A stretch of DNA of 64,000 nt from a virus (IMGVR_UViG_3300023180_000051:1320-65319); one strand, 5' to 3'. Positions 7,141 through 14,397 are shown, counted from the first letter of the stretch. Numbers and translations: made by a program. Notes: a model not told the origin generated them from the letters alone.

Positions 7141-7602
7141 CTATACTCCAAATACTATGCTATTTACGATTGATTGTTCTTGTGTAACATAAGCATCTAA
7201 TTCAGTAGTAGAAGTTGTCAACCCAAAAACTACACCAAAAAAGTCTTGACCTGCTTTTGGCGCTTCTACAAAATTAATTACAATAGGATCTGTCGTCAAA
7301 TCCGTTCCACCAGAAATATAAAATCCACTTGATTGAGTTGGATCTGGTTGTTGAATCACACCACCAACTGATATCATTACTCTCGCTGCTGTTGTTATTT
7401 CACTATTTATGAACTTGTTCGTATTGCTAGTAAGAGTAAATGCTGTTGTAGTTCCATTAAAAGAAGACGCAATATTATCGATAATTTTATACTCAGTGTT
7501 TAGTGGAACTATTTGCCATGCTGCACCATTGTATTTCCAAGTTTTTGTTCCAATAGTAACAGTATCATTCAAACTTGGTGATGCTGGAAAATCTAATGCC
7601 AT
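7141..7602 (-). CDS. Fibre adaptor-like protein
   Basis: N-terminal DFPASP..WKYNGAAW module, IDNIASSFNG..SVGGVIQ.P..FVEAP..FFG domain, and hydrophobic C-terminal SIVNSIVFGV. Confidence 0.65.
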   Translation of the reverse strand: MALDFPASPSLNDTVTIGTKTWKYNGAAWQIVPLNTEYKIIDNIASSFNGTTTAFTLTSNTNKFINSEITTAARVMISVGGVIQQPDPTQSSGFYISGGTDLTTDPIVINFVEAPKAGQDFFGVVFGLTTSTTELDAYVTQEQSIVNSIVFGV

Positions 7603-7818: not shown

Positions 7819-9582
7819 TTATCCCGTAACAGTCCAACCTTTGTCTGTAGCAATAGAAGTATTGTCAGCAACTGTCCCAGGATTACTAGATACAGTTATA
7901 GTTTGTGAAGTAACAGTTGATAAGTTTGTGTATATTTCATTCAATGAATTAAAGGATAACTTGGCGTTCGCAACTGAAAATGAAACGTCATATAAATCAG
8001 TAGATTCTATTCTTTGTAGTGATGCGCATCCACTAATAGAAAGACCAGAAGATGAAGTTCCAGTGCCAAAATTCCAATGACTGGGAATAACTTGAATATT
8101 TGCACAATTGTATAATACACTACTTCTGCCATTGTTCATATTTGGCATATTATATCTTGGAAGTTTTTCTAAAGAAATGCAATTGCTAAAATGATCATCC
8201 CAATTAGTACATGAAGTATAATCAGTATCTGGAACTTTTCTCAAAGCCACACAATTTGAGAAAACACTTCTTGCTTGATCTACTCCACTACTATTAAAAT
8301 TTAAAAAGTTTGGAGCTGTAATCAATGATCTACAGTTTGAAAACATAAAATTTACGCTTGTAACACTGGTCATATCAAAATCTGCTACTTTTGCAAGTGA
8401 ATAACAACTTGAAAAGCAAGATGAAAAAGATAGAACTAATCCTGTATTTAAATATGGAACTTCTTTCAAAGAGTAACAACTTGCAAACGTACTACTCATA
8501 ATTGTACAACTACTAAAATCAAATTGTGGAATCTCTTCTAAAGAAGTACATGATTGAAAAGCAGCGGTAGCGTTTGTGACAGAACTAAAATCATATAAAG
8601 GCAATTTTTTTAATTTAAAGCATTCATTGAACATAAAAGATATGTTTGTAGCACTGGAAGTATCAAGATACGGAGCTCGATCAAGATTATAACAATCAGA
8701 AAAAGCACTACTAAAACTAGTTACATTTGATGAAAGACTAGGATCTATAACAAAATTTTGTAGGTTAGTGCATCCACTACACATATTTTGAAAACTAGTA
8801 ATGCTACTACTAAGATTGTAAATTTCTATACTTTCTAAATATTTCGCCATAACCGCAGTAAAATCAGAGATATTACTAAGTTGTAGACTTGTGCAACTTG
8901 GAAGTGAAAGTTTTATTTCTAACCAACCACTAGTATATCCACCTCTAGAAAAAGGTGCAAATTTATTATCAAGATCGAGTCTCTCAATGTTACCAGATGT
9001 TGGCGTAATTTTTATAGTTTCTATTTTATATGGCAGCAATGATCCAGATCCATCAGTAGTTAGTGCCACAGCACTACCAGATTCTGTTGCTGAGATTTGA
9101 AATGTATTTGTTGTTGGATTTATTACATAATAATCTTTTCCTTCTGTTATTCCAGTTGTTGATGAAATGCGGTAGAATTGTACAATGTCTCCTTCAATAT
9201 ATCCATGAGAACTTCTTGTTACTACATCTCCAGTATCTGTAAAAGTAACAGTGGCATCATATAATGCATTATTATCAAAAGGAGTTGCCCATTCGACATA
9301 TTGATTAGTCGATCTGTTTGTTGTACTAATACCGACACGCTCAACTTGATAAGTACCACTGTTAGACACTTGACAAGTTACTGAACTTTCATTGCCATTA
9401 TTTCCAGTGTTATCTCCTGGCCAAACAGCACACAACCCAACAAATTTTTCATCACTACTAGAAACTGACTCTGGAAATTCTGGCCATGCTTTGTTTCTTT
9501 TCCATATTTGTTCACTAGTATTTGTCGATACAGATCTTGTACTAGACTGAATACTAAATGATTGATTATTGCGAATTGCCAT
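7819..9582 (-). CDS. BspA/DUF285-like leucine-rich-repeat protein, candidate receptor-binding protein
   Basis: About ten ~24-aa repeats FxxCxxLxxxPxxDxSxxTxxxxxF and a C-terminal IATDKGWTVTG cap; N-terminal HGY..GD.VQF..YYV..TFQISAT module. Confidence 0.75.
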   Translation of the reverse strand: MAIRNNQSFSIQSSTRSVSTNTSEQIWKRNKAWPEFPESVSSSDEKFVGLCAVWPGDNTGNNGNESSVTCQVSNSGTYQVERVGISTTNRSTNQYVEWATPFDNNALYDATVTFTDTGDVVTRSSHGYIEGDIVQFYRISSTTGITEGKDYYVINPTTNTFQISATESGSAVALTTDGSGSLLPYKIETIKITPTSGNIERLDLDNKFAPFSRGGYTSGWLEIKLSLPSCTSLQLSNISDFTAVMAKYLESIEIYNLSSSITSFQNMCSGCTNLQNFVIDPSLSSNVTSFSSAFSDCYNLDRAPYLDTSSATNISFMFNECFKLKKLPLYDFSSVTNATAAFQSCTSLEEIPQFDFSSCTIMSSTFASCYSLKEVPYLNTGLVLSFSSCFSSCYSLAKVADFDMTSVTSVNFMFSNCRSLITAPNFLNFNSSGVDQARSVFSNCVALRKVPDTDYTSCTNWDDHFSNCISLEKLPRYNMPNMNNGRSSVLYNCANIQVIPSHWNFGTGTSSSGLSISGCASLQRIESTDLYDVSFSVANAKLSFNSLNEIYTNLSTVTSQTITVSSNPGTVADNTSIATDKGWTVTG

Positions 9583-9909: not shown

Positions 9910-11193
9910 TTATGCTCCCATTAATAAAAACGAACTGATAGTTTCTTGTGCAGCTGCAGGTTCTGTTGCACCAGTTACTGTATATGAAGAACCAAATTCA
10001 ATCCACTGTGAACTATTTCCGTCGTTGTAGTAAACGTAACAAATTCCGTCGTCAGAATCTACCCAGCGATCTCCTACACTTGGAGATGTTGGCGCTGTTG
10101 ACTGGAAGTAATTTTCTCCGCCATTACTAACGGATCCATCTGCCATTAAATACTGTGATGCAGTTCCGCCAGATTTTATAAACGAAGTCGCTTTTATATT
10201 ACCTTGTACATCTAATTTTTCAGTTGGATCTATTCCAATACCAACATTATAATTCTCATCTCCAACAATCCAATAGTTTGCTGCTCCACTACTTGTTCTA
10301 TTTCCTATAGCAAGTTGCTCATTGCTAGTTGTATCTGGCGCATCAAATAAAAATGATTCACTAAATCCATTTCCTATGATAACTTTATTTGATGCAGTTG
10401 TAGATATTCCTCCATATTTTCCAATAAAAATATTGGAAGATCCTGTAGTATTATTATTTCCTGATAGTGTGCCAATAGAAACGTTATCTTGCCCTTCTGT
10501 AATAGAAGGTCCAGCAATATATCCAATCGAAACATTTTCTGATCCAGTAGTATAACCAGGTGATGGAAAATATCCTAGGAAGACGTTATGATTACCAGTT
10601 GCACCACTATTTGCTCCTTCACCAGCACCTTCTCCTATGCATACATTATAACTAGCAGATGTAATTTCACCACCAGCATTAACTCCAATAAAAACATTAT
10701 TAAATGCACCGTCAAAATTAAGTCCCGCAAATCTACCTATAGAGATATTTTGATTACCATCGGTATTAGCTGAACCAGCAAGTTGACCGATAGATATGTT
10801 ATAAACACCACTAGTAAGTGATTCCCCCGACTGGTCGCCAATAAGAATATTATCAGTTCCTGTCGTCAGAGCAGCACCTGTGGTTGTTGAACTGCCAACT
10901 AAAAAATTCTGATTATTACTTAGAACAATTTTGTCGTCATTCAGAAGAATGTTATTACCATTTGAATCTAAGTCTCCACCAAGTTGTGGAGTGGTATCTT
11001 CTACTACATTAGATATTCCTCCTCCCCCAGCACCAGCACCAATCTCTACGATGCTTTCTGTGCCGTTGTCTTTCTTGATAAACAGTTTGCCATCAAACGT
11101 GTTGATAGCAACTTCTCCTAATGCTAATTGTGCAGTAGTTGGTACTGCAGATTGTGTGGCTGATCGCCTCAGCCTTACTACTGGTGTTGCCAT
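9910..11193 (-). CDS. Tail fibre protein with gp37/Mtd-type N-terminal domain and YadA-head-like beta-roll repeats
   Basis: N-terminal VRLRRS..P..LALGEVAINTFDGKLF, a DTTPQLGGDLD motif, and ~14-aa periodic N(I/V)xIGxxAG repeats. Confidence 0.8.
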   Translation of the reverse strand: MATPVVRLRRSATQSAVPTTAQLALGEVAINTFDGKLFIKKDNGTESIVEIGAGAGGGGISNVVEDTTPQLGGDLDSNGNNILLNDDKIVLSNNQNFLVGSSTTTGAALTTGTDNILIGDQSGESLTSGVYNISIGQLAGSANTDGNQNISIGRFAGLNFDGAFNNVFIGVNAGGEITSASYNVCIGEGAGEGANSGATGNHNVFLGYFPSPGYTTGSENVSIGYIAGPSITEGQDNVSIGTLSGNNNTTGSSNIFIGKYGGISTTASNKVIIGNGFSESFLFDAPDTTSNEQLAIGNRTSSGAANYWIVGDENYNVGIGIDPTEKLDVQGNIKATSFIKSGGTASQYLMADGSVSNGGENYFQSTAPTSPSVGDRWVDSDDGICYVYYNDGNSSQWIEFGSSYTVTGATEPAAAQETISSFLLMGA

Positions 11194-11212
11194 TTTTTAT
11201 CCTATATAGGTT

Positions 11213-11437
11213 TTAAAATGTGCCACCATCCTGATCTGTATCTACAGACTTTTTACGGGTGGTGGTTTTCTTGGTAGGAGCAGATTCAGAAGCATTATTT
11301 AATGCCTCGGTCAATGCTAAGTCAAATGCTCTTACCTTCGCTTCTAACGCAACAATCTGATTGAGTTGAGAGGAAATTTTTTCCTGCATCACCTCAATCA
11401 GAATTGCGTAATCTACTTGTACTTGATTTTGGATCAT
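11213..11437 (-). CDS. Small coiled-coil protein ending DGGTF
   Basis: 74 aa with a heptad segment ISSQLNQIVALEAKV. Confidence 0.7.
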   Translation of the reverse strand: MIQNQVQVDYAILIEVMQEKISSQLNQIVALEAKVRAFDLALTEALNNASESAPTKKTTTRKKSVDTDQDGGTF

Positions 11438-11459
11438 AACAAAATAATACTGTTAGTAT

Positions 11460-11467
11460 TATTTATC
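11460..11467 (-). promoter_or_regulatory. T4-type late promoter (GATAAATA)
   Basis: NATAAATA box about 22 nt upstream of the 74-aa ORF. Confidence 0.65.
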
Positions 11468-13406
11468 AATAAGTACCAGCATCAACTGTTAGGTTCTGAA
11501 GATATCTTCCAGCGGTTGAACCATCGGGAGCAGAACCAGCAGCAAGATAACTTACAATCGCTTGATTAGCTCCAGCGGTATCTGTTACGTTTAGAGCACC
11601 ACAAAGAACTGCAATTGGAGTAGGTGAAAGATCAGTACCCGAACCAGTGCCAGTAGTAGTACCAGTAACAAATAGATCTAGACCTTCGTCATAACCGATG
11701 AAGATGTTGTCATCATCACCACGCTCAATTACGATACCAGAATCTGCAGTTGGATTACCAGTAGTACCGTTTGCTAATTCAAGCAGTCTATCTGAAACTA
11801 CGGTGTTGGTAGTATTGATGGTTGTGGTAGTACCATTGACTGTTAAGTTACCAGTGATAGTGACGTTAGAATCAAACGTACCGTCTCCAGTAACATCAAG
11901 AGTACCAGGAACATCAATATTTGATGCCCACTCAACACCTGTACCAGCAGCATCTGTTTGAAGTAACTGACGAGCAGTTCCATTTGCTAGTTTTGAAACC
12001 GCAATCTCAGCAGTAGCAGAGATATCTCCATCTACAATTACACCAGAACCAATGCTAGCAGCGCCGCCAGCAGCAATAGTGATATCGCCAGATACCTTAC
12101 CGAAAGTATAATCAGCAACTCTCGTTACTGCTGCTTTGCGGTTAGTACCAGCGCCACCATCATCGACAGCGATAAGATCAGCATCTGCAAGTGCAGCACC
12201 GATGTCAGTCATGCCATCGATGTCAAGTGCTAACTCATGAGAAATTCCTTCACCTGATGTAGCACCACTGGTAGAAATACCACCATTAGCAGTTACTGAA
12301 ACATCAGCAACATAATCACCAGTAGTATCTGTTCCAAGTGCAACAGAGTTAGCAGCAATTGTGGCAACACCAGATGAGTTGAAAGTTACATCACCAGTTG
12401 CTTCTTGAAGAACATATAGTGCTAAATTAGCAGCAGTAATCTTATTATGACCGACACCATTGACACCATCAACAGTGTCATAGAATGCTAGTTCGTCAGC
12501 ATCAGCAATAGTGTCAGTATCTAAACCATTGATGTCTAGTGCAACGTCATCTGCGTTGACTGTGATACCTTCACCAGCACCAATTGCTAGATCAACGGTT
12601 TGACCTTCACCAGCAGAAGAAGTCTTAGCAAGACCTGCACCTGCGGTTACATCTTCGACATAGTTGCCAGTTGTCTGAGTTCCTAGAGCAACAGAGTCGT
12701 TCTGGATTGTTGCAGTGCCGTTTGCTGCAACAGCAATATCGCCAGCAATATCAGCAAAAATAACAGTCTCAAGATTTGAAATTGTTACCTTCTTATTTGC
12801 TGTTGCTGATGCATCATATACTGCAAAAGAATCAGCAACGACTAGAGGATCAGTGCCACCTTCTGCATCTAGTGCAGTTAGTTCGTTAATGTCTAGAGCA
12901 GTTGTAAGAACATTAGTTGCCGTAGCATAGGTCTGTGAAATACCAGACCCACCAGTAAATGTTACGGTATCTGTAGAAGCAATGTTCTCTGAGTTAGAAC
13001 CATCAGATACTGTCCAACCAGAATAACCTGATGTTTGATCTACCCAAGAAAGATTTCCATTAGCATCGGACTGAAGAATCTTTGCTCCTGTTGGAGCTGC
13101 TGGCCAAGTATATGTTGAATCTGTTGCGATATCAGCAACATCAAAAGTTACCGATCCTCCACCAGATACATCAGTTCTTGCTAGAATAGTTACTTCGCCT
13201 GAAGTAGTTGCCGCCGCGGCTGTGAGTGACTCATCAACTCTTGCTGTATATGAAGTACCACCAACATGAACAAAAGAAGATGCGCCATCTGCAACGTAAA
13301 GGTTGCTTGCGCTAGTATCAAAAAATGGTTCACCAGAAAGAGCAGTTGACACATTTCCTACTGGGGTGGATGATCCCCTACGTAGTCTTAAACGTGGTGC
13401 TGCCAT
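11466..13406 (-). CDS. Tail fibre protein
   Basis: N-terminal RLRLRRG..LSGEPFFDT domain, three internal repeats, GNLTVNGTTTTIN..DRLLEL..DSGIVIERG fibre motif; ends DAGTY. Confidence 0.8.
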   Translation of the reverse strand: MAAPRLRLRRGSSTPVGNVSTALSGEPFFDTSASNLYVADGASSFVHVGGTSYTARVDESLTAAAATTSGEVTILARTDVSGGGSVTFDVADIATDSTYTWPAAPTGAKILQSDANGNLSWVDQTSGYSGWTVSDGSNSENIASTDTVTFTGGSGISQTYATATNVLTTALDINELTALDAEGGTDPLVVADSFAVYDASATANKKVTISNLETVIFADIAGDIAVAANGTATIQNDSVALGTQTTGNYVEDVTAGAGLAKTSSAGEGQTVDLAIGAGEGITVNADDVALDINGLDTDTIADADELAFYDTVDGVNGVGHNKITAANLALYVLQEATGDVTFNSSGVATIAANSVALGTDTTGDYVADVSVTANGGISTSGATSGEGISHELALDIDGMTDIGAALADADLIAVDDGGAGTNRKAAVTRVADYTFGKVSGDITIAAGGAASIGSGVIVDGDISATAEIAVSKLANGTARQLLQTDAAGTGVEWASNIDVPGTLDVTGDGTFDSNVTITGNLTVNGTTTTINTTNTVVSDRLLELANGTTGNPTADSGIVIERGDDDNIFIGYDEGLDLFVTGTTTGTGSGTDLSPTPIAVLCGALNVTDTAGANQAIVSYLAAGSAPDGSTAGRYLQNLTVDAGTY

Positions 13407-13434
13407 TTTAGTTCCTTAAAACCTGTTACTTATA

Positions 13435-13441
13435 TATTTAG
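13435..13441 (-). promoter_or_regulatory. Late promoter variant (CTAAATA)
   Basis: Located about 28 nt upstream of the 646-aa fibre gene, with SD AAGGA between. Confidence 0.55.
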
Positions 13442-13821
13442 TAAGTTCCATAGTCTAAAGCATCATCATCAATATTATCAGATCTATCAACTATTTCAAA
13501 TGGTGAAACATATTCATGCTTTTGTAATGATTCATTCCAAACTAAAACATAGTTATTATTTCTATTTGATGTATCGACATCATTAGAACCAGATAATGAT
13601 CCTGCTACTGGTAAACTATAAACATGAGCTTGTTGGGTTTCATCCCAAGTCACAACGTATTGATCTAATCTACCAGAAGTGTTGACATCATCAAGTGTGG
13701 ACAAATTTCCTTCTAGCTGCTGAGGAGCTTCATCTACGTCTACAATTTGTTTTCTATCTGTTCTTGTAAAAGTTACATTATAATTATTTGTGCTGCTTAC
13801 TGTAACTTGATACTTGCTCAT
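13438..13821 (-). CDS. Fibre connector-like protein ending DYGTY
   Basis: 127 aa with two LSxxxDVxTS..YVxxW(D/N)E repeats. Confidence 0.7.
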   Translation of the reverse strand: MSKYQVTVSSTNNYNVTFTRTDRKQIVDVDEAPQQLEGNLSTLDDVNTSGRLDQYVVTWDETQQAHVYSLPVAGSLSGSNDVDTSNRNNNYVLVWNESLQKHEYVSPFEIVDRSDNIDDDALDYGTY

Positions 13822-14171
13822 AGTACTCCTGGCATTACTGTGACCACTCCTTCAATTACTTTATCCGTTGTTCCTCCAGGACTAGTAATAAAAAGATTCC
13901 ATACATATCTTCCTTTTTTGAGGTCTGTTGTTTTTTGTACCAATGATCCTCCACTGTTTGCCATAGAGAGTTTTACTTCACCAGTAGTAACATCAGTTAC
14001 AGTAGCACCTAAACTATACTTGGTTGTTGTAGTATAATTTCTTGCCATATATGCAGACACAGCATATCCAGTCATATCTAGAAAGTTTCCATTCTCATCT
14101 CTTAGGTTGAATGAAACTTCCCAGTCAGCACCAATCTCTATTTGTAGATTTACTGGTATAGCAGTAGCCAT
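13818..14171 (-). CDS. BppU/LtfC-like Ig-fold fibre attachment protein
   Basis: NLQIEIGADW...DMTGY...GEVKLSM...GRYVW...KVIEGVVTV.PGV, a widespread small virion family. Confidence 0.7.
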   Translation of the reverse strand: MATAIPVNLQIEIGADWEVSFNLRDENGNFLDMTGYAVSAYMARNYTTTTKYSLGATVTDVTTGEVKLSMANSGGSLVQKTTDLKKGRYVWNLFITSPGGTTDKVIEGVVTVMPGVL

Positions 14172-14214: not shown

Positions 14215-14397
14215 TCAAGATTCTTCGCTTGGAGCGTCTGGTGAATCATGCTCTAATAAATTTAGAGTCTCTAGACCACCAGTAAGTTTTGTTCTATACT
14301 CTTTTGCTTTTACTAGATTTTGTTCTAGTTCTTTAATTTGACTATCAGTTTGAGCAATTTGATCTTCAAAATTTTTTCTAAGTGTTGCAGGATCCAT
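14215..14397 (-). CDS. Small coiled-coil hypothetical protein
   Basis: 60 aa MDPATLRKNFEDQI..KLTGGLETL with its own late promoter. Confidence 0.75.
   Translation of the reverse strand: MDPATLRKNFEDQIAQTDSQIKELEQNLVKAKEYRTKLTGGLETLNLLEHDSPDAPSEES

Follow-up and report, generated by a model that had tools for sequence, protein, structure and literature searches.

On the minus strand of the window, which is the whole 64,000-nt stretch of viral DNA analysed in this work (IMGVR_UViG_3300023180_000051:1320-65319), lies a tightly packed gene cassette. At its head is the gene of a 117-aa, LtfC-like beta-sandwich protein, presumably an anchor or collar subunit (13818..14171). It overlaps by 4 nt with the gene of a 127-aa adaptor (13438..13821), and this is followed, at spacers of 31, 28 and 19 nt, by the genes of a 646-aa fibre (fibre 1, 11466..13406), a 74-aa coiled-coil protein (11213..11437) and a 427-aa fibre (fibre 2, 9910..11193), all on the minus strand. 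The adaptor combines a beta-strand-like N-terminus (MSKYQVTVSS...) with an internal duplication and an acidic C-terminal tail that ends in DYGTY directly before the stop codon (codons 13441-13455). Fibre 1 starts with MAAPRLRLRRG...GEPFFDT and ends in DAGTY, likewise followed by a stop codon (11469..11483), and the coiled-coil protein, which features a basic SRKKSV stretch, ends in DGGTF (11216-11230). Fibre 2 starts with MATPVVRLRRSAT...LALGEVAINTFDGKLF; it carries no tag and has the C-terminus ...SSFLLMGA. The original prediction, made from this DNA alone, that three consecutive proteins share a C-terminal tag was exact in coordinates and in sequence. Next to the cassette, a gene for a 60-aa helical protein adjoins the LtfC-like gene upstream (14215..14397, minus strand; phrog_580, E 5.7e-18). 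A small gene like it precedes the LtfC-like gene in the related loci L004-L007, L009 and L010, and we regard its product as a conserved neighbour whose membership in the module is uncertain.

The window, both strands counted, contains 246 ORFs with a length of 40 aa or more, and none but these three has [DE]xGx[FY] at its end. Given the amino-acid frequencies of the window itself, the probability of a C-terminal D.GT[FY] is 4.9e-5 per gene; three occurrences in 31 minus-strand genes thus have a joint probability of about 5e-10, and a chance origin of the three tags is excluded. The terminal position also holds beyond the window. In 2132 ORFs, D[GA]G[TS][FY] stands at the C-terminus in 220 cases and elsewhere in the chain in 9, where composition alone predicts 8 occurrences at any position. 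Similarly, in 80 loci selected for the tag, IDGGTF followed by TAA closed an open frame of at least 54 aa in 82/82 matches. Some tags continue for one further residue (DCGTYP, DAGTYW, DGGTFS), so that the aromatic does not strictly need to carry a free carboxylate.

Within the protein families of the cassette, conservation is concentrated at the ends. DYGT[YF] closes all 13 homologs of the 127-aa adaptor (39-98% identity), and within this protein conservation is highest over the final ~20 residues; as a monomer it was modelled as disordered (pLDDT 39), and this model was unusable. In a 41-row alignment of 646-aa orthologs, M1, A2, P4, L6, G11, E26 and P27 are invariant at one end and N638, D642 and G644 at the other. 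Considering the best 120 matches to residues 470-646 of fibre 1, 63 had a relaxed tag at their end, and 57 of these 63 also carried the N-terminal domain. Cultured phages contained no near-DNA match to the window and no match to the 127-aa protein, and for the 646-aa protein only short partial matches were found there (7 records, each covering at most 13% of the query). In the ESM Atlas, the 127-aa and 74-aa proteins matched nothing beyond unnamed viral clusters.

The 117-aa protein matched PHROG 3304, annotated as L-shaped tail fiber protein assembly (E 9.7e-14), and phrog_1084 (E 2.5e-19); its match to the Pfam family LtfC (PF23926) was weak and below the cut-off (E 0.032). Foldseek, run on an AlphaFold2 model (pLDDT 86.8), placed four chains of 137-140 residues at the top of its PDB matches, 7qg9_L/J from the tail tip of T5 and 8hqz_T/Q from the baseplate of DT57C (E 4e-6 to 1.6e-5, TM 0.64-0.67). 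According to this model, the protein has the single-domain beta-sandwich fold of LtfC, and the earlier description of an Ig adaptor at the cassette head was right. In related loci the cassette is likewise headed by a gene of this type.

Both large fibres begin with small, related domains, for which we use the term N-domain, or catcher by analogy. In fibre 1 this is the segment of residues 1-45 (13272..13406, minus strand), which belongs to an 'RRG...GEP' subclass; residues 7-43 resemble Pfam Mtd_N at E 2.9e-4, with 21.1 bits against a cut-off of 26.3. Several 646-aa relatives carry this family (PF18454) in a precomputed table, and 10/17 aligned related N-domains match it, with a best E of 6.1e-9. 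The corresponding gp37-type domain of fibre 2, residues 1-45 (11059-11193, minus strand), gave no Mtd_N match in Pfam and can be aligned with T4 gp37 and six of its relatives; the remaining body of this protein matches phrog_6002, a 'virion structural protein' (E 9.7e-32). Compared with each other by hhalign, the fibre 2 N-domain and the fibre 1 N-domains are related at 95% probability (E 3.3e-8), as had been proposed for the gp37-type starts of the two proteins. Like the tag, the N-domain is bound to a chain end, and 302/308 begin within the first 15 residues. Tag and N-domain fused in one chain, in the manner of a Rosetta stone, were not found; of four internal N-domain matches, one came from a wrongly called start and the other three were weak half-motifs within small adaptors. 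Sequence searches of solved structures returned none for gp36, just a chance match for the 427-aa protein and none at E <=1 for the N-domain profile.

Gene order connects the two elements. In loci selected for the N-domain, a tag-ending frame lies at most 300 nt upstream in 73/80 cases (65/71 distinct N-domains); 7/80 lack it. Conversely, in tag-selected loci the next gene carries an N-domain in 41/66 cases after an exact tag and in 15/26 after other tags, or 56/92 when pooled, versus 34/562 after untagged genes. The enrichment is hence strong in both directions, as the original prediction implied. The rule is not absolute, since no N-domain gene came next in 25/66 exact-tag and 11/26 other-tag cases, and the N-domain fibre of P-SSM2 sits after an HNH endonuclease gene. 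Chains of tags and N-domains also occur in cultured podo-, sipho- and myoviruses; Synechococcus phage S-CBS2 and Vibrio phage 1.208.B are examples of cultured phages that have one.

The further idea that tag variants spell a specificity code kept only a weak signal. On 204 non-identical pairs, tag and N-domain seemed to covary strongly. Once these were de-replicated to 103 pairs, 183/5000 shuffles equalled or exceeded the observed value at position -4 and 959/5000 did so at position -2, and position -1 gave no signal. What is retained is a weak signal at -4, namely the link between an aromatic there and the 'RRG...GEP' domain; positions -2 and -1 dropped out, and we rejected a code at the level of the pentapeptide. 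The generic tag DGGT[FY] precedes many N-domain subclasses.

The proximal joint was analysed by complex prediction with 3+3 chains, combining the C-terminal part of the 127-aa adaptor (residues 80-127) with the N-terminal 90 residues of fibre 1. The complex passed the ipSAE mark of the tool with 0.75 (runs 0.76, 0.75 and 0.66), a mark that 58/80 solved complexes and 2/110 mismatched pairs reach and that, having been calibrated on single-chain pairs with the tool's own alignments, is only roughly valid here. The best of three controls, an unrelated 52-residue peptide, reached 0.53, and the margin above it was just +0.22, with 0.20 needed; when chain 1 was replaced, the tag-bearing partner scored 0.00. 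Contacts agreed between runs by at least 84%, and the pLDDT of the adaptor part was at least 74. The predicted interface joins adaptor residues 119-127 to N-domain residues 3-11, 15, 18-19, 23 and 26-28, and the model places the last nine residues of the adaptor on the RLRLRRG strand. The tag and N-domain residues involved are those invariant in the 127-aa and 646-aa family alignments. No solved homolog is detectable by sequence, and memory is therefore unlikely as the source of this result. A docking interface of the kind originally proposed is thus predicted above controls, and binding of the 127-aa tag to the 646-aa N-domain is supported by the model.

Taken together, we read the cassette in the window as the module that encodes the tail fibre of an uncultured marine phage of the T4-like type, in which separate polypeptides are joined end to end by tag/N-domain joints, and give this reading a probability of about 70%. 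The fibre pieces would connect roughly in gene order, each proximal piece ending in a strictly C-terminal [DE]-x-G-x-[FY]-COOH and the next fibre opening with a small Mtd_N/gp37-type domain. In the proposed joint, we infer trimers on both sides: every chain of the proximal trimer would contribute its final ~9 residues as an extra beta-strand, which pairs with the basic strand (RLRLRRG or VRLRRS) at the N-terminus of a single subunit in the trimer that follows. An Arg would lie opposite the conserved Asp of the tag, and the terminal aromatic of the tag could occupy a pocket made of G11, P15, N18-V19 and the GE-P-F turn. The fibre chain may start at the 117-aa LtfC-like protein, which, by analogy with T5 and DT57C, would hold the N-terminal strands of the 127-aa adaptor; we infer this contact from gene order and from the DT57C precedent. 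DYGTY of the adaptor would then plug into fibre 1. Further out, DAGTY of fibre 1 might take the N-terminus of the 74-aa protein and DGGTF of the latter the N-domain of fibre 2. For this part of the chain we favour, tentatively and with somewhat less than an even chance, such a route, in which the coiled coil would serve as a connecting hinge between fibre 1 and the 427-aa fibre at the distal end.

The joint may indeed be real and its distal half wired otherwise. DAGTY of fibre 1 could insert straight into the N-domain of fibre 2, with the 74-aa protein acting as a non-structural assembly factor, either a chaperone of fibre 1 or a temporary cap or decoy whose DGGTF occupies the fibre 2 N-domain until fibre 1 arrives. 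We consider this wiring a serious possibility, if short of probable. Most N-domain-selected loci have a tag-ending fibre gene directly upstream, at gaps of ~33-100 nt that leave no room for an intervening gene. A small helical protein whose gene directly follows a fibre gene is in many cases a chaperone, and T4 gp57A, by its annotation, has a size similar to that of the 74-aa protein; however, a relationship with gp57A was rejected, as hhalign gave a probability of 0.1% for the 74-aa family against it, which speaks against the chaperone role. The 74-aa protein itself matched no Pfam or PHROG family. A whole-library search returned 9 relatives, and of the 8 that were aligned, 7 end in an aromatic and 5 in [DE]xGx[FY]. 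At the loci of the coiled-coil family the gene is preceded by a tag-ending gene in 14/14 cases, and 6/14 members have a tag of their own; the other 8/14 lack it, so the tag is dispensable for the role of this family, which fits direct wiring. On the other hand, an N-domain gene comes next after 6/6 tagged versus 3/8 untagged members, which suits a structural link and a cap equally well. In 5/14 of these cassettes the tag of fibre 1 is kept with no N-domain gene downstream, and the tag may therefore have another partner. The 74-aa protein is either a connector or an assembly factor.

Two further explanations question the joint itself. The tag could be a feature of the fold of fibre segments that caps the trimer, nucleates folding or is gripped by a chaperone, with its association with N-domains merely following from the adjacency of fibre genes. 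The exact-tag genes that have no N-domain gene next (25/66) would be expected from this, as would tags kept where no fibre 2 follows, the generic DGGT[FY] in front of many N-domain subclasses and the 0.53 reached by an unrelated peptide in the complex test. Yet the predicted interface consists of exactly the tag and the invariant N-domain residues, and replacing chain 1 took the tag-bearing partner to 0.00. Moreover, both elements are strictly terminal, the tag also sits on non-fibrous carriers (the 127-aa adaptor, disordered alone, and the 74-aa coiled coil), and in T4 the C-terminal end of gp36 and the N-terminal end of gp37 are known to meet, as the accessible text of two papers states (PMC9603124, PMC3004832). 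We hence judge a mere fold feature improbable. Far less credible still are three functionless relics of a duplicated C-terminal module. The N-domains of the 646-aa and 427-aa proteins are homologous, and a duplication within the cassette therefore clearly happened; the tag carriers, however, are an adaptor, a long fibre and a coiled coil that are otherwise unrelated, the tag is invariant within the 127-aa family down to 39% identity, and it recurs in T4 gp36 and in hundreds of loci.

No part of a phage genome is harder to annotate than its tail-fibre genes, and most products of such cassettes are labelled 'hypothetical'. Five C-terminal residues from which the first domain of the following gene product can be predicted provide a simple rule that helps to recognise, order and delimit fibre segments. 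It also suggests how distal, host-binding segments may be swapped as whole genes with the remaining fibre undisturbed. For the window, an LtfC-type anchor, a small adaptor, two fibres and a coiled coil are tied into one proposed assembly line. We may further speculate that tag and N-domain form a portable, non-covalent connector used across all three tail types, with interchangeable segments, orthogonal subclasses that fix the order of assembly, and tagged non-fibre parts serving as hinges or branch points. This generalisation is rather unlikely at present; if true, fibre architecture and assembly order would be readable from the genome, and segments would be exchangeable as units. An example of the orthogonality meant here is the aromatic at tag position -4, which would pair only with the 'RRG...GEP' domain.

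In the literature searched, we found no paper on a pairing of tag and N-domain; the motif strings led to no phage paper, and phrases on gp36-gp37 led to general statements only. No experimental structure of such a joint was found either, and the figures or supplements of a T4 cryo-EM study (10.64898/2026.03.06.709160) and of a fibre atlas (10.1101/2024.10.28.620165), beyond their accessible text, could hold a residue-level gp36-gp37 model. Fibre domains spread over adjacently encoded polypeptides, as in the window, have been described for the side fibres of the marine podoviruses ICP2 and SIO1 (Hardies et al. 2016, PMC4819975), although the accessible portions of that work name no terminal tag, N-terminal acceptor domain or gene-order rule. 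Bordetella phage BPP-1, whose Mtd is the founding member of Mtd_N, may offer a related start domain, and its Mtd gene comes right after the putative fibre gene bbp9; the 646-aa protein of the window scores below the Pfam cut-off for Mtd_N. Bbp9 ends in ADLGGIA, which has D-x-G-G without a terminal aromatic, and was not counted as a second textbook example of the tag.

Engineered pairs such as SpyTag and SpyCatcher illustrate how a small beta domain can be completed through strand addition, the added strand being a short terminal peptide. Strand addition by such a peptide is what we propose for the window joint; in contrast, a covalent isopeptide bond is not suggested by our data, and 'catcher' is used as an analogy only. 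For the cassette head, attachment of the lateral fibres in T5 and DT57C, where the N-terminal strands of LtfA sit in a collar ring of LtfC, is the closest parallel. There, as the accessible part of the DT57C study describes, LtfC takes up the N-terminal strands of the fibre by beta-sheet augmentation (PMC10713586), so that beta-strand donation would be common to DT57C and to the mechanism proposed here. The 117-aa protein shares the predicted LtfC fold, its gene stands directly before that of the protein that would start the fibre, and it may likewise form a dodecameric ring on the tail. However, it is just 11-12% identical to the solved chains, the protein that follows it is the 127-aa adaptor and not the fibre itself, and the particle is a siphovirus there and a T4-like myovirus here.

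The T4 joint remains the reference. The facts given on T4 in the original prediction, a gp36 ending in DFGYY and the gp37 N-terminus, hold in the T4 sequences: gp36 ends in ...SVQDFGYY, and its gene lies directly upstream of the gp37 N-domain, the two genes being co-oriented neighbours 8 nt apart. In the T4 genome, gp36 is the only gene end that fits [DE]xGx[FY]-stop; the pattern occurs five times, and the other four matches contain a stop, finish with TGG or fall within gene tk.4. Of the 120 closest gp36 relatives, 118 end in D[FY]Gx[YF]. According to the accessible text of the two T4 papers, gp36 binds with its C-terminal end to the N-terminus of gp37; this text describes the contact at low resolution and names no motif (PMC9603124, PMC3004832). 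The window differs from T4 in that its tag carriers are not gp36 homologs: the 127-aa, 646-aa and 74-aa proteins gave no match to Phage_T4_gp36 (PF03903) at E <=0.1, and the terminal peptide alone is common. In addition, the joint would be used two or more times in succession, its carriers include the 127-aa adaptor and the 74-aa coiled coil, and the cassette has no equivalent of gp34, gp35 or gp38. Like T4, in turn, it has a proximal piece that ends in D-[FY]-G-x-[YF] and a next gene that starts with a gp37-type N-domain, and the aromatic at position -4 is common to gp36 and to the DYGTY of the adaptor. The window pair would thus be the sequence pair of the gp36-gp37 junction, and this long-known, structurally unresolved junction would gain a predicted model at residue level. 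Tags, N-domains, gene order and the predicted 127-646 interface all support the reuse of a gp36-gp37-type joint in this cassette.

The fibre cassette comprises five closely packed genes on the minus strand. The first (13818-14171) encodes a 117-aa protein and overlaps by 4 nt the gene of a 127-aa adaptor (13438-13821), which ends in DYGTY. Spacers of 31, 28 and 19 nt then separate the adaptor gene from that of the 646-aa fibre 1 (11466-13406; start MAAPRLRLRRG...GEPFFDT, end DAGTY), fibre 1 from a 74-aa coiled-coil protein (11213-11437; end DGGTF), and the latter from the 427-aa fibre 2 (9910-11193), which starts with MATPVVRLRRSAT...LGEVAINTFDGKLF. Re-reading the window showed all coordinates of the original prediction to be correct, and its observation of repeated C-terminal tags and related fibre N-termini is confirmed. 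The window covers 64 kb of its source IMG/VR virus record, which has 65,319 bases and a completeness rating of 34%. Nearly all long ORFs of the window are on the minus strand, a run of fibre-like genes among them; upstream of the cassette, 14425-57434 holds four giant ORFs, likewise on the minus strand (4038, 2305, 2764 and 3914 aa).

Among 246 window ORFs of at least 40 aa, just the 127-, 646- and 74-aa proteins end in the relaxed tag [DE]xGx[FY]. For the strict form D.GT[FY], the window's own composition gives p = 4.9e-5 per gene, and about 5e-10 for three occurrences in 31 genes. The N-termini of fibres 1 and 2 are related (profile-profile probability 95%, E 3.3e-8). Pfam Mtd_N matches 10 of 17 aligned N-terminal domains of this type (N-domains; best E 6.1e-9), and fibre 1 itself scores 21.1 bits, under the cut-off of 26.3. 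Tag and N-domain are both strictly terminal features: the tag was terminal 220 times and internal nine times, with eight expected anywhere from composition, and the N-domain began within the first 15 residues in 302 of 308 cases. Homologs of the adaptor end in DYGT[YF] in 13/13 cases at identities down to 39%, the acidic last ~20 residues being the best-conserved part of the family. In a 41-row ortholog alignment of fibre 1, the invariant positions cluster at both ends. Among the 120 best matches to its residues 470-646, 63 end in a tag, 57 of them also starting with an N-domain; the other 57 have the internal region alone in common. The aromatic residue is not always last, as some tags carry one more residue (DCGTYP, DAGTYW, DGGTFS; L008:7310-9037, proteins P0074 and P0075, and loci L026, L035 and L036).

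Tag genes tend to precede N-domain genes. In the best 80 of 548 confirmed IMG/VR stretches picked by N-domain, a relaxed-tag frame lies at most 300 nt upstream in 73 loci, corresponding to 65 of 71 distinct N-domains, and a strict tag in 58. Where both genes are complete (49 loci), the tag is upstream in 47/49 versus 34/366 for other ORFs, and these 34 are further tag-bearing genes upstream within the same chains. The converse selection used the pattern IDGGTF followed by TAA; from the 120 stretches that it gave, 80 loci with 82 matches were examined, and every one of the 82 closes an open reading frame no shorter than 54 aa. Among adjacent same-strand pairs in these loci, the next gene has an N-domain in 41/66 cases after the exact tag and 15/26 after other tags, versus 34/562 after untagged genes. 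The rule is not absolute, and exceptions occur in both sets; in the P-SSM2 stretch examined, no tag-ending gene stands immediately upstream of the N-domain fibre. Twelve IMG/VR loci found via the adaptor family keep the same order wherever the DNA is long enough, namely LtfC-like gene, small (or 340-aa) DYGT[YF] protein, fibre 1, coiled coil and fibre 2. In one clade (L011-L014), the DYGTF carrier is a protein of ~340 aa; its N-terminal part has no relation to the adaptor, and three conserved genes, in place of an LtfC-like gene, precede it. Other lineages have chains of three or four tag-ending genes. Cultured phages have such chains as well: in Vibrio phage 1.208.B (Zobellviridae), proteins ending in NGGVY and DGGAF are followed by an N-domain protein ending in DGGSF and then by another N-domain, and the others are Synechococcus siphovirus S-CBS2, a Ralstonia phage and Achromobacter phage Motura. 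A tag-to-domain 'code' was apparent at first and mostly gone after de-replication. The surviving link joins an aromatic residue at tag position -4 with the 'RRG...GEP' class of N-domains (8/8 representatives), a class that accepts DGGT-type tags too.

A tag/N-domain interface was also predicted structurally. Three copies of fibre 1 residues 1-90 (41-row alignment) modelled with three of adaptor residues 80-127 (14-row alignment) gave an ipSAE of 0.75 (runs 0.76, 0.75 and 0.66) versus 0.53 for the best of three controls. This passes the tool's mark, which 58/80 solved complexes and 2/110 mismatched pairs reach, a calibration only rough for this type of job; the margin over the best control (+0.22) is narrowly above the required 0.20. 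Contacts agreed by at least 84% between runs, with partner pLDDT at least 74. In the model, tag residues 119-127 face fibre residues 3-11, 15, 18-19, 23 and 26-28, with in-register pairs R7/D123, R9/Y124-T126 and R10-G11/T126-Y127, so that the tag looks like a parallel added strand on the N-domain, and Y127 contacts G11, P15, N18, V19 and F28. The modelled contact positions are invariant in the family alignments. Modelled alone, the adaptor is disordered (pLDDT 39). A sequence search of solved structures returned nothing resembling either partner, and recall of a known complex is therefore an unlikely source of the result. The complex model supports adaptor-fibre 1 binding, rather than demonstrating it.

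The LtfC-like protein of 117 aa has a match in PHROG 3304 ('L-shaped tail fiber protein assembly'). Its model (pLDDT 86.8) has as its four best PDB matches ~140-residue tail-tip chains of T5 and DT57C (E 4e-6 to 1.6e-5, TM 0.64-0.67). In DT57C, the LtfC ring grips the lateral fibre via its N-terminal beta-strands, which the ring takes up (PMC10713586). By analogy, the 117-aa protein might hold the strand-like N-terminus of the adaptor. The adaptor contains an internal duplication of a ~37-residue unit (DVNTSGR..YVVTWDE..HVYS and DVDTSNR..YVLVWNE..HEYVS), of which homologs of 86-93 aa have one copy. In other lineages (L021, L022 and L062), small tag-ending adaptors of 115-137 aa contain, internally, a weak match to half of the N-domain motif (...LADQ.F RGTT.P......GD.WYDT..., E 1e-4 to 9e-4).

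The core of the interpretation, a chainable tag/N-domain joint, is supported; the distal arrangement beyond fibre 1 is putative. Searches of Pfam, PHROG and the ESM Atlas gave it no named relatives. A whole-library search found nine family proteins, of which eight were aligned; seven of these end in an aromatic residue and five in the relaxed motif, a looser tag conservation than in the adaptor and fibre 1 families. A tag-ending gene precedes all 14 distinct members found in loci, which, with the tag/N-domain pattern, indicates that the 74-aa protein goes with fibre 1. An N-domain gene is next after all six tagged members. We slightly favour a putative in-line hinge connector: the fibre 1 tag would add onto the N-terminal strand of the 74-aa protein, whose own tag would then enter fibre 2. 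Alternatively, the protein could be a putative non-structural assembly factor or cap. Eight of the 14 members are untagged, and an N-domain gene is next in three of these and absent there in five, where the next gene is, for example, one whose N-terminus may resemble that of T4 neck protein gp13. Comparison with T4 gp57A revealed no likeness.

Tagless distal fibres often have a short hydrophobic tail, as in the window (9910-11193, ...SSFLLMGA), L003:7412-7924, L009:9395-13186 and L219:4001-5854, with ends such as ...AIAYAIAL, ...PFILALGA and, in P-SSM2, ...PLILALGGE; several database matches end in ...AIAMAIAL or ...LGLVIALS. Such tails may be a second type of terminal signature. Within the fibre block, 7819-9582 encodes a 587-aa protein in which DUF285 repeats (PF03382, E 1.1e-16) occur together with a segment that matches tail-fibre PHROGs. 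A 153-aa protein (7141-7602) starts with MALDFPASPSLND...TWKYNGAAWQ, and its N-terminal module also begins fibre-like genes in L073, L075 and L049 and match P0098, so that it represents a third type of fibre start that recurs. Downstream of the block, the genes at 80-1021 and 1023-1823 start like those after fibre cassettes elsewhere (MA.P.SR.E...C.R.LG.PV.EINV... and M...PFF..G...EQ.L...L..E), presumably resembling T4 neck proteins gp13 and gp14.

Among the papers covered by the literature search (main texts), none names the C-terminal tag or the gene-order rule. Hardies et al. describe marine podovirus fibres of multiple polypeptides, with similarity to gp36 (PMC4819975). In Bordetella phage BPP-1, Bbp9 (L222:4599-6125), from a putative fibre gene directly upstream of mtd, ends in ...ADLGGIA, so that the Mtd_N founder lacks an aromatic tag; with its D-x-G-G and no terminal aromatic, this end may be a divergent tag form. 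The T4 features given in the original prediction are correct: gp36 ends in ...SVQDFGYY, and the next gene, 37, opens with the same N-domain. The ends of gp34 and gp35 do not fit the tag, and gp36 is the one fitting gene end in the whole T4 genome. In the gp36 family, a D[FY]Gx[YF] end is shared by 118 of the 120 closest members, and the remaining two have another end or are seemingly cut short. According to reviews, the C-terminal end of gp36 binds the N-terminal end of gp37 at a junction without an atomic structure (PMC9603124, PMC3004832). We rate the module of the window as the T4 gp36-gp37 joint, with the difference that in the window this type of joint is generalised and used in series.
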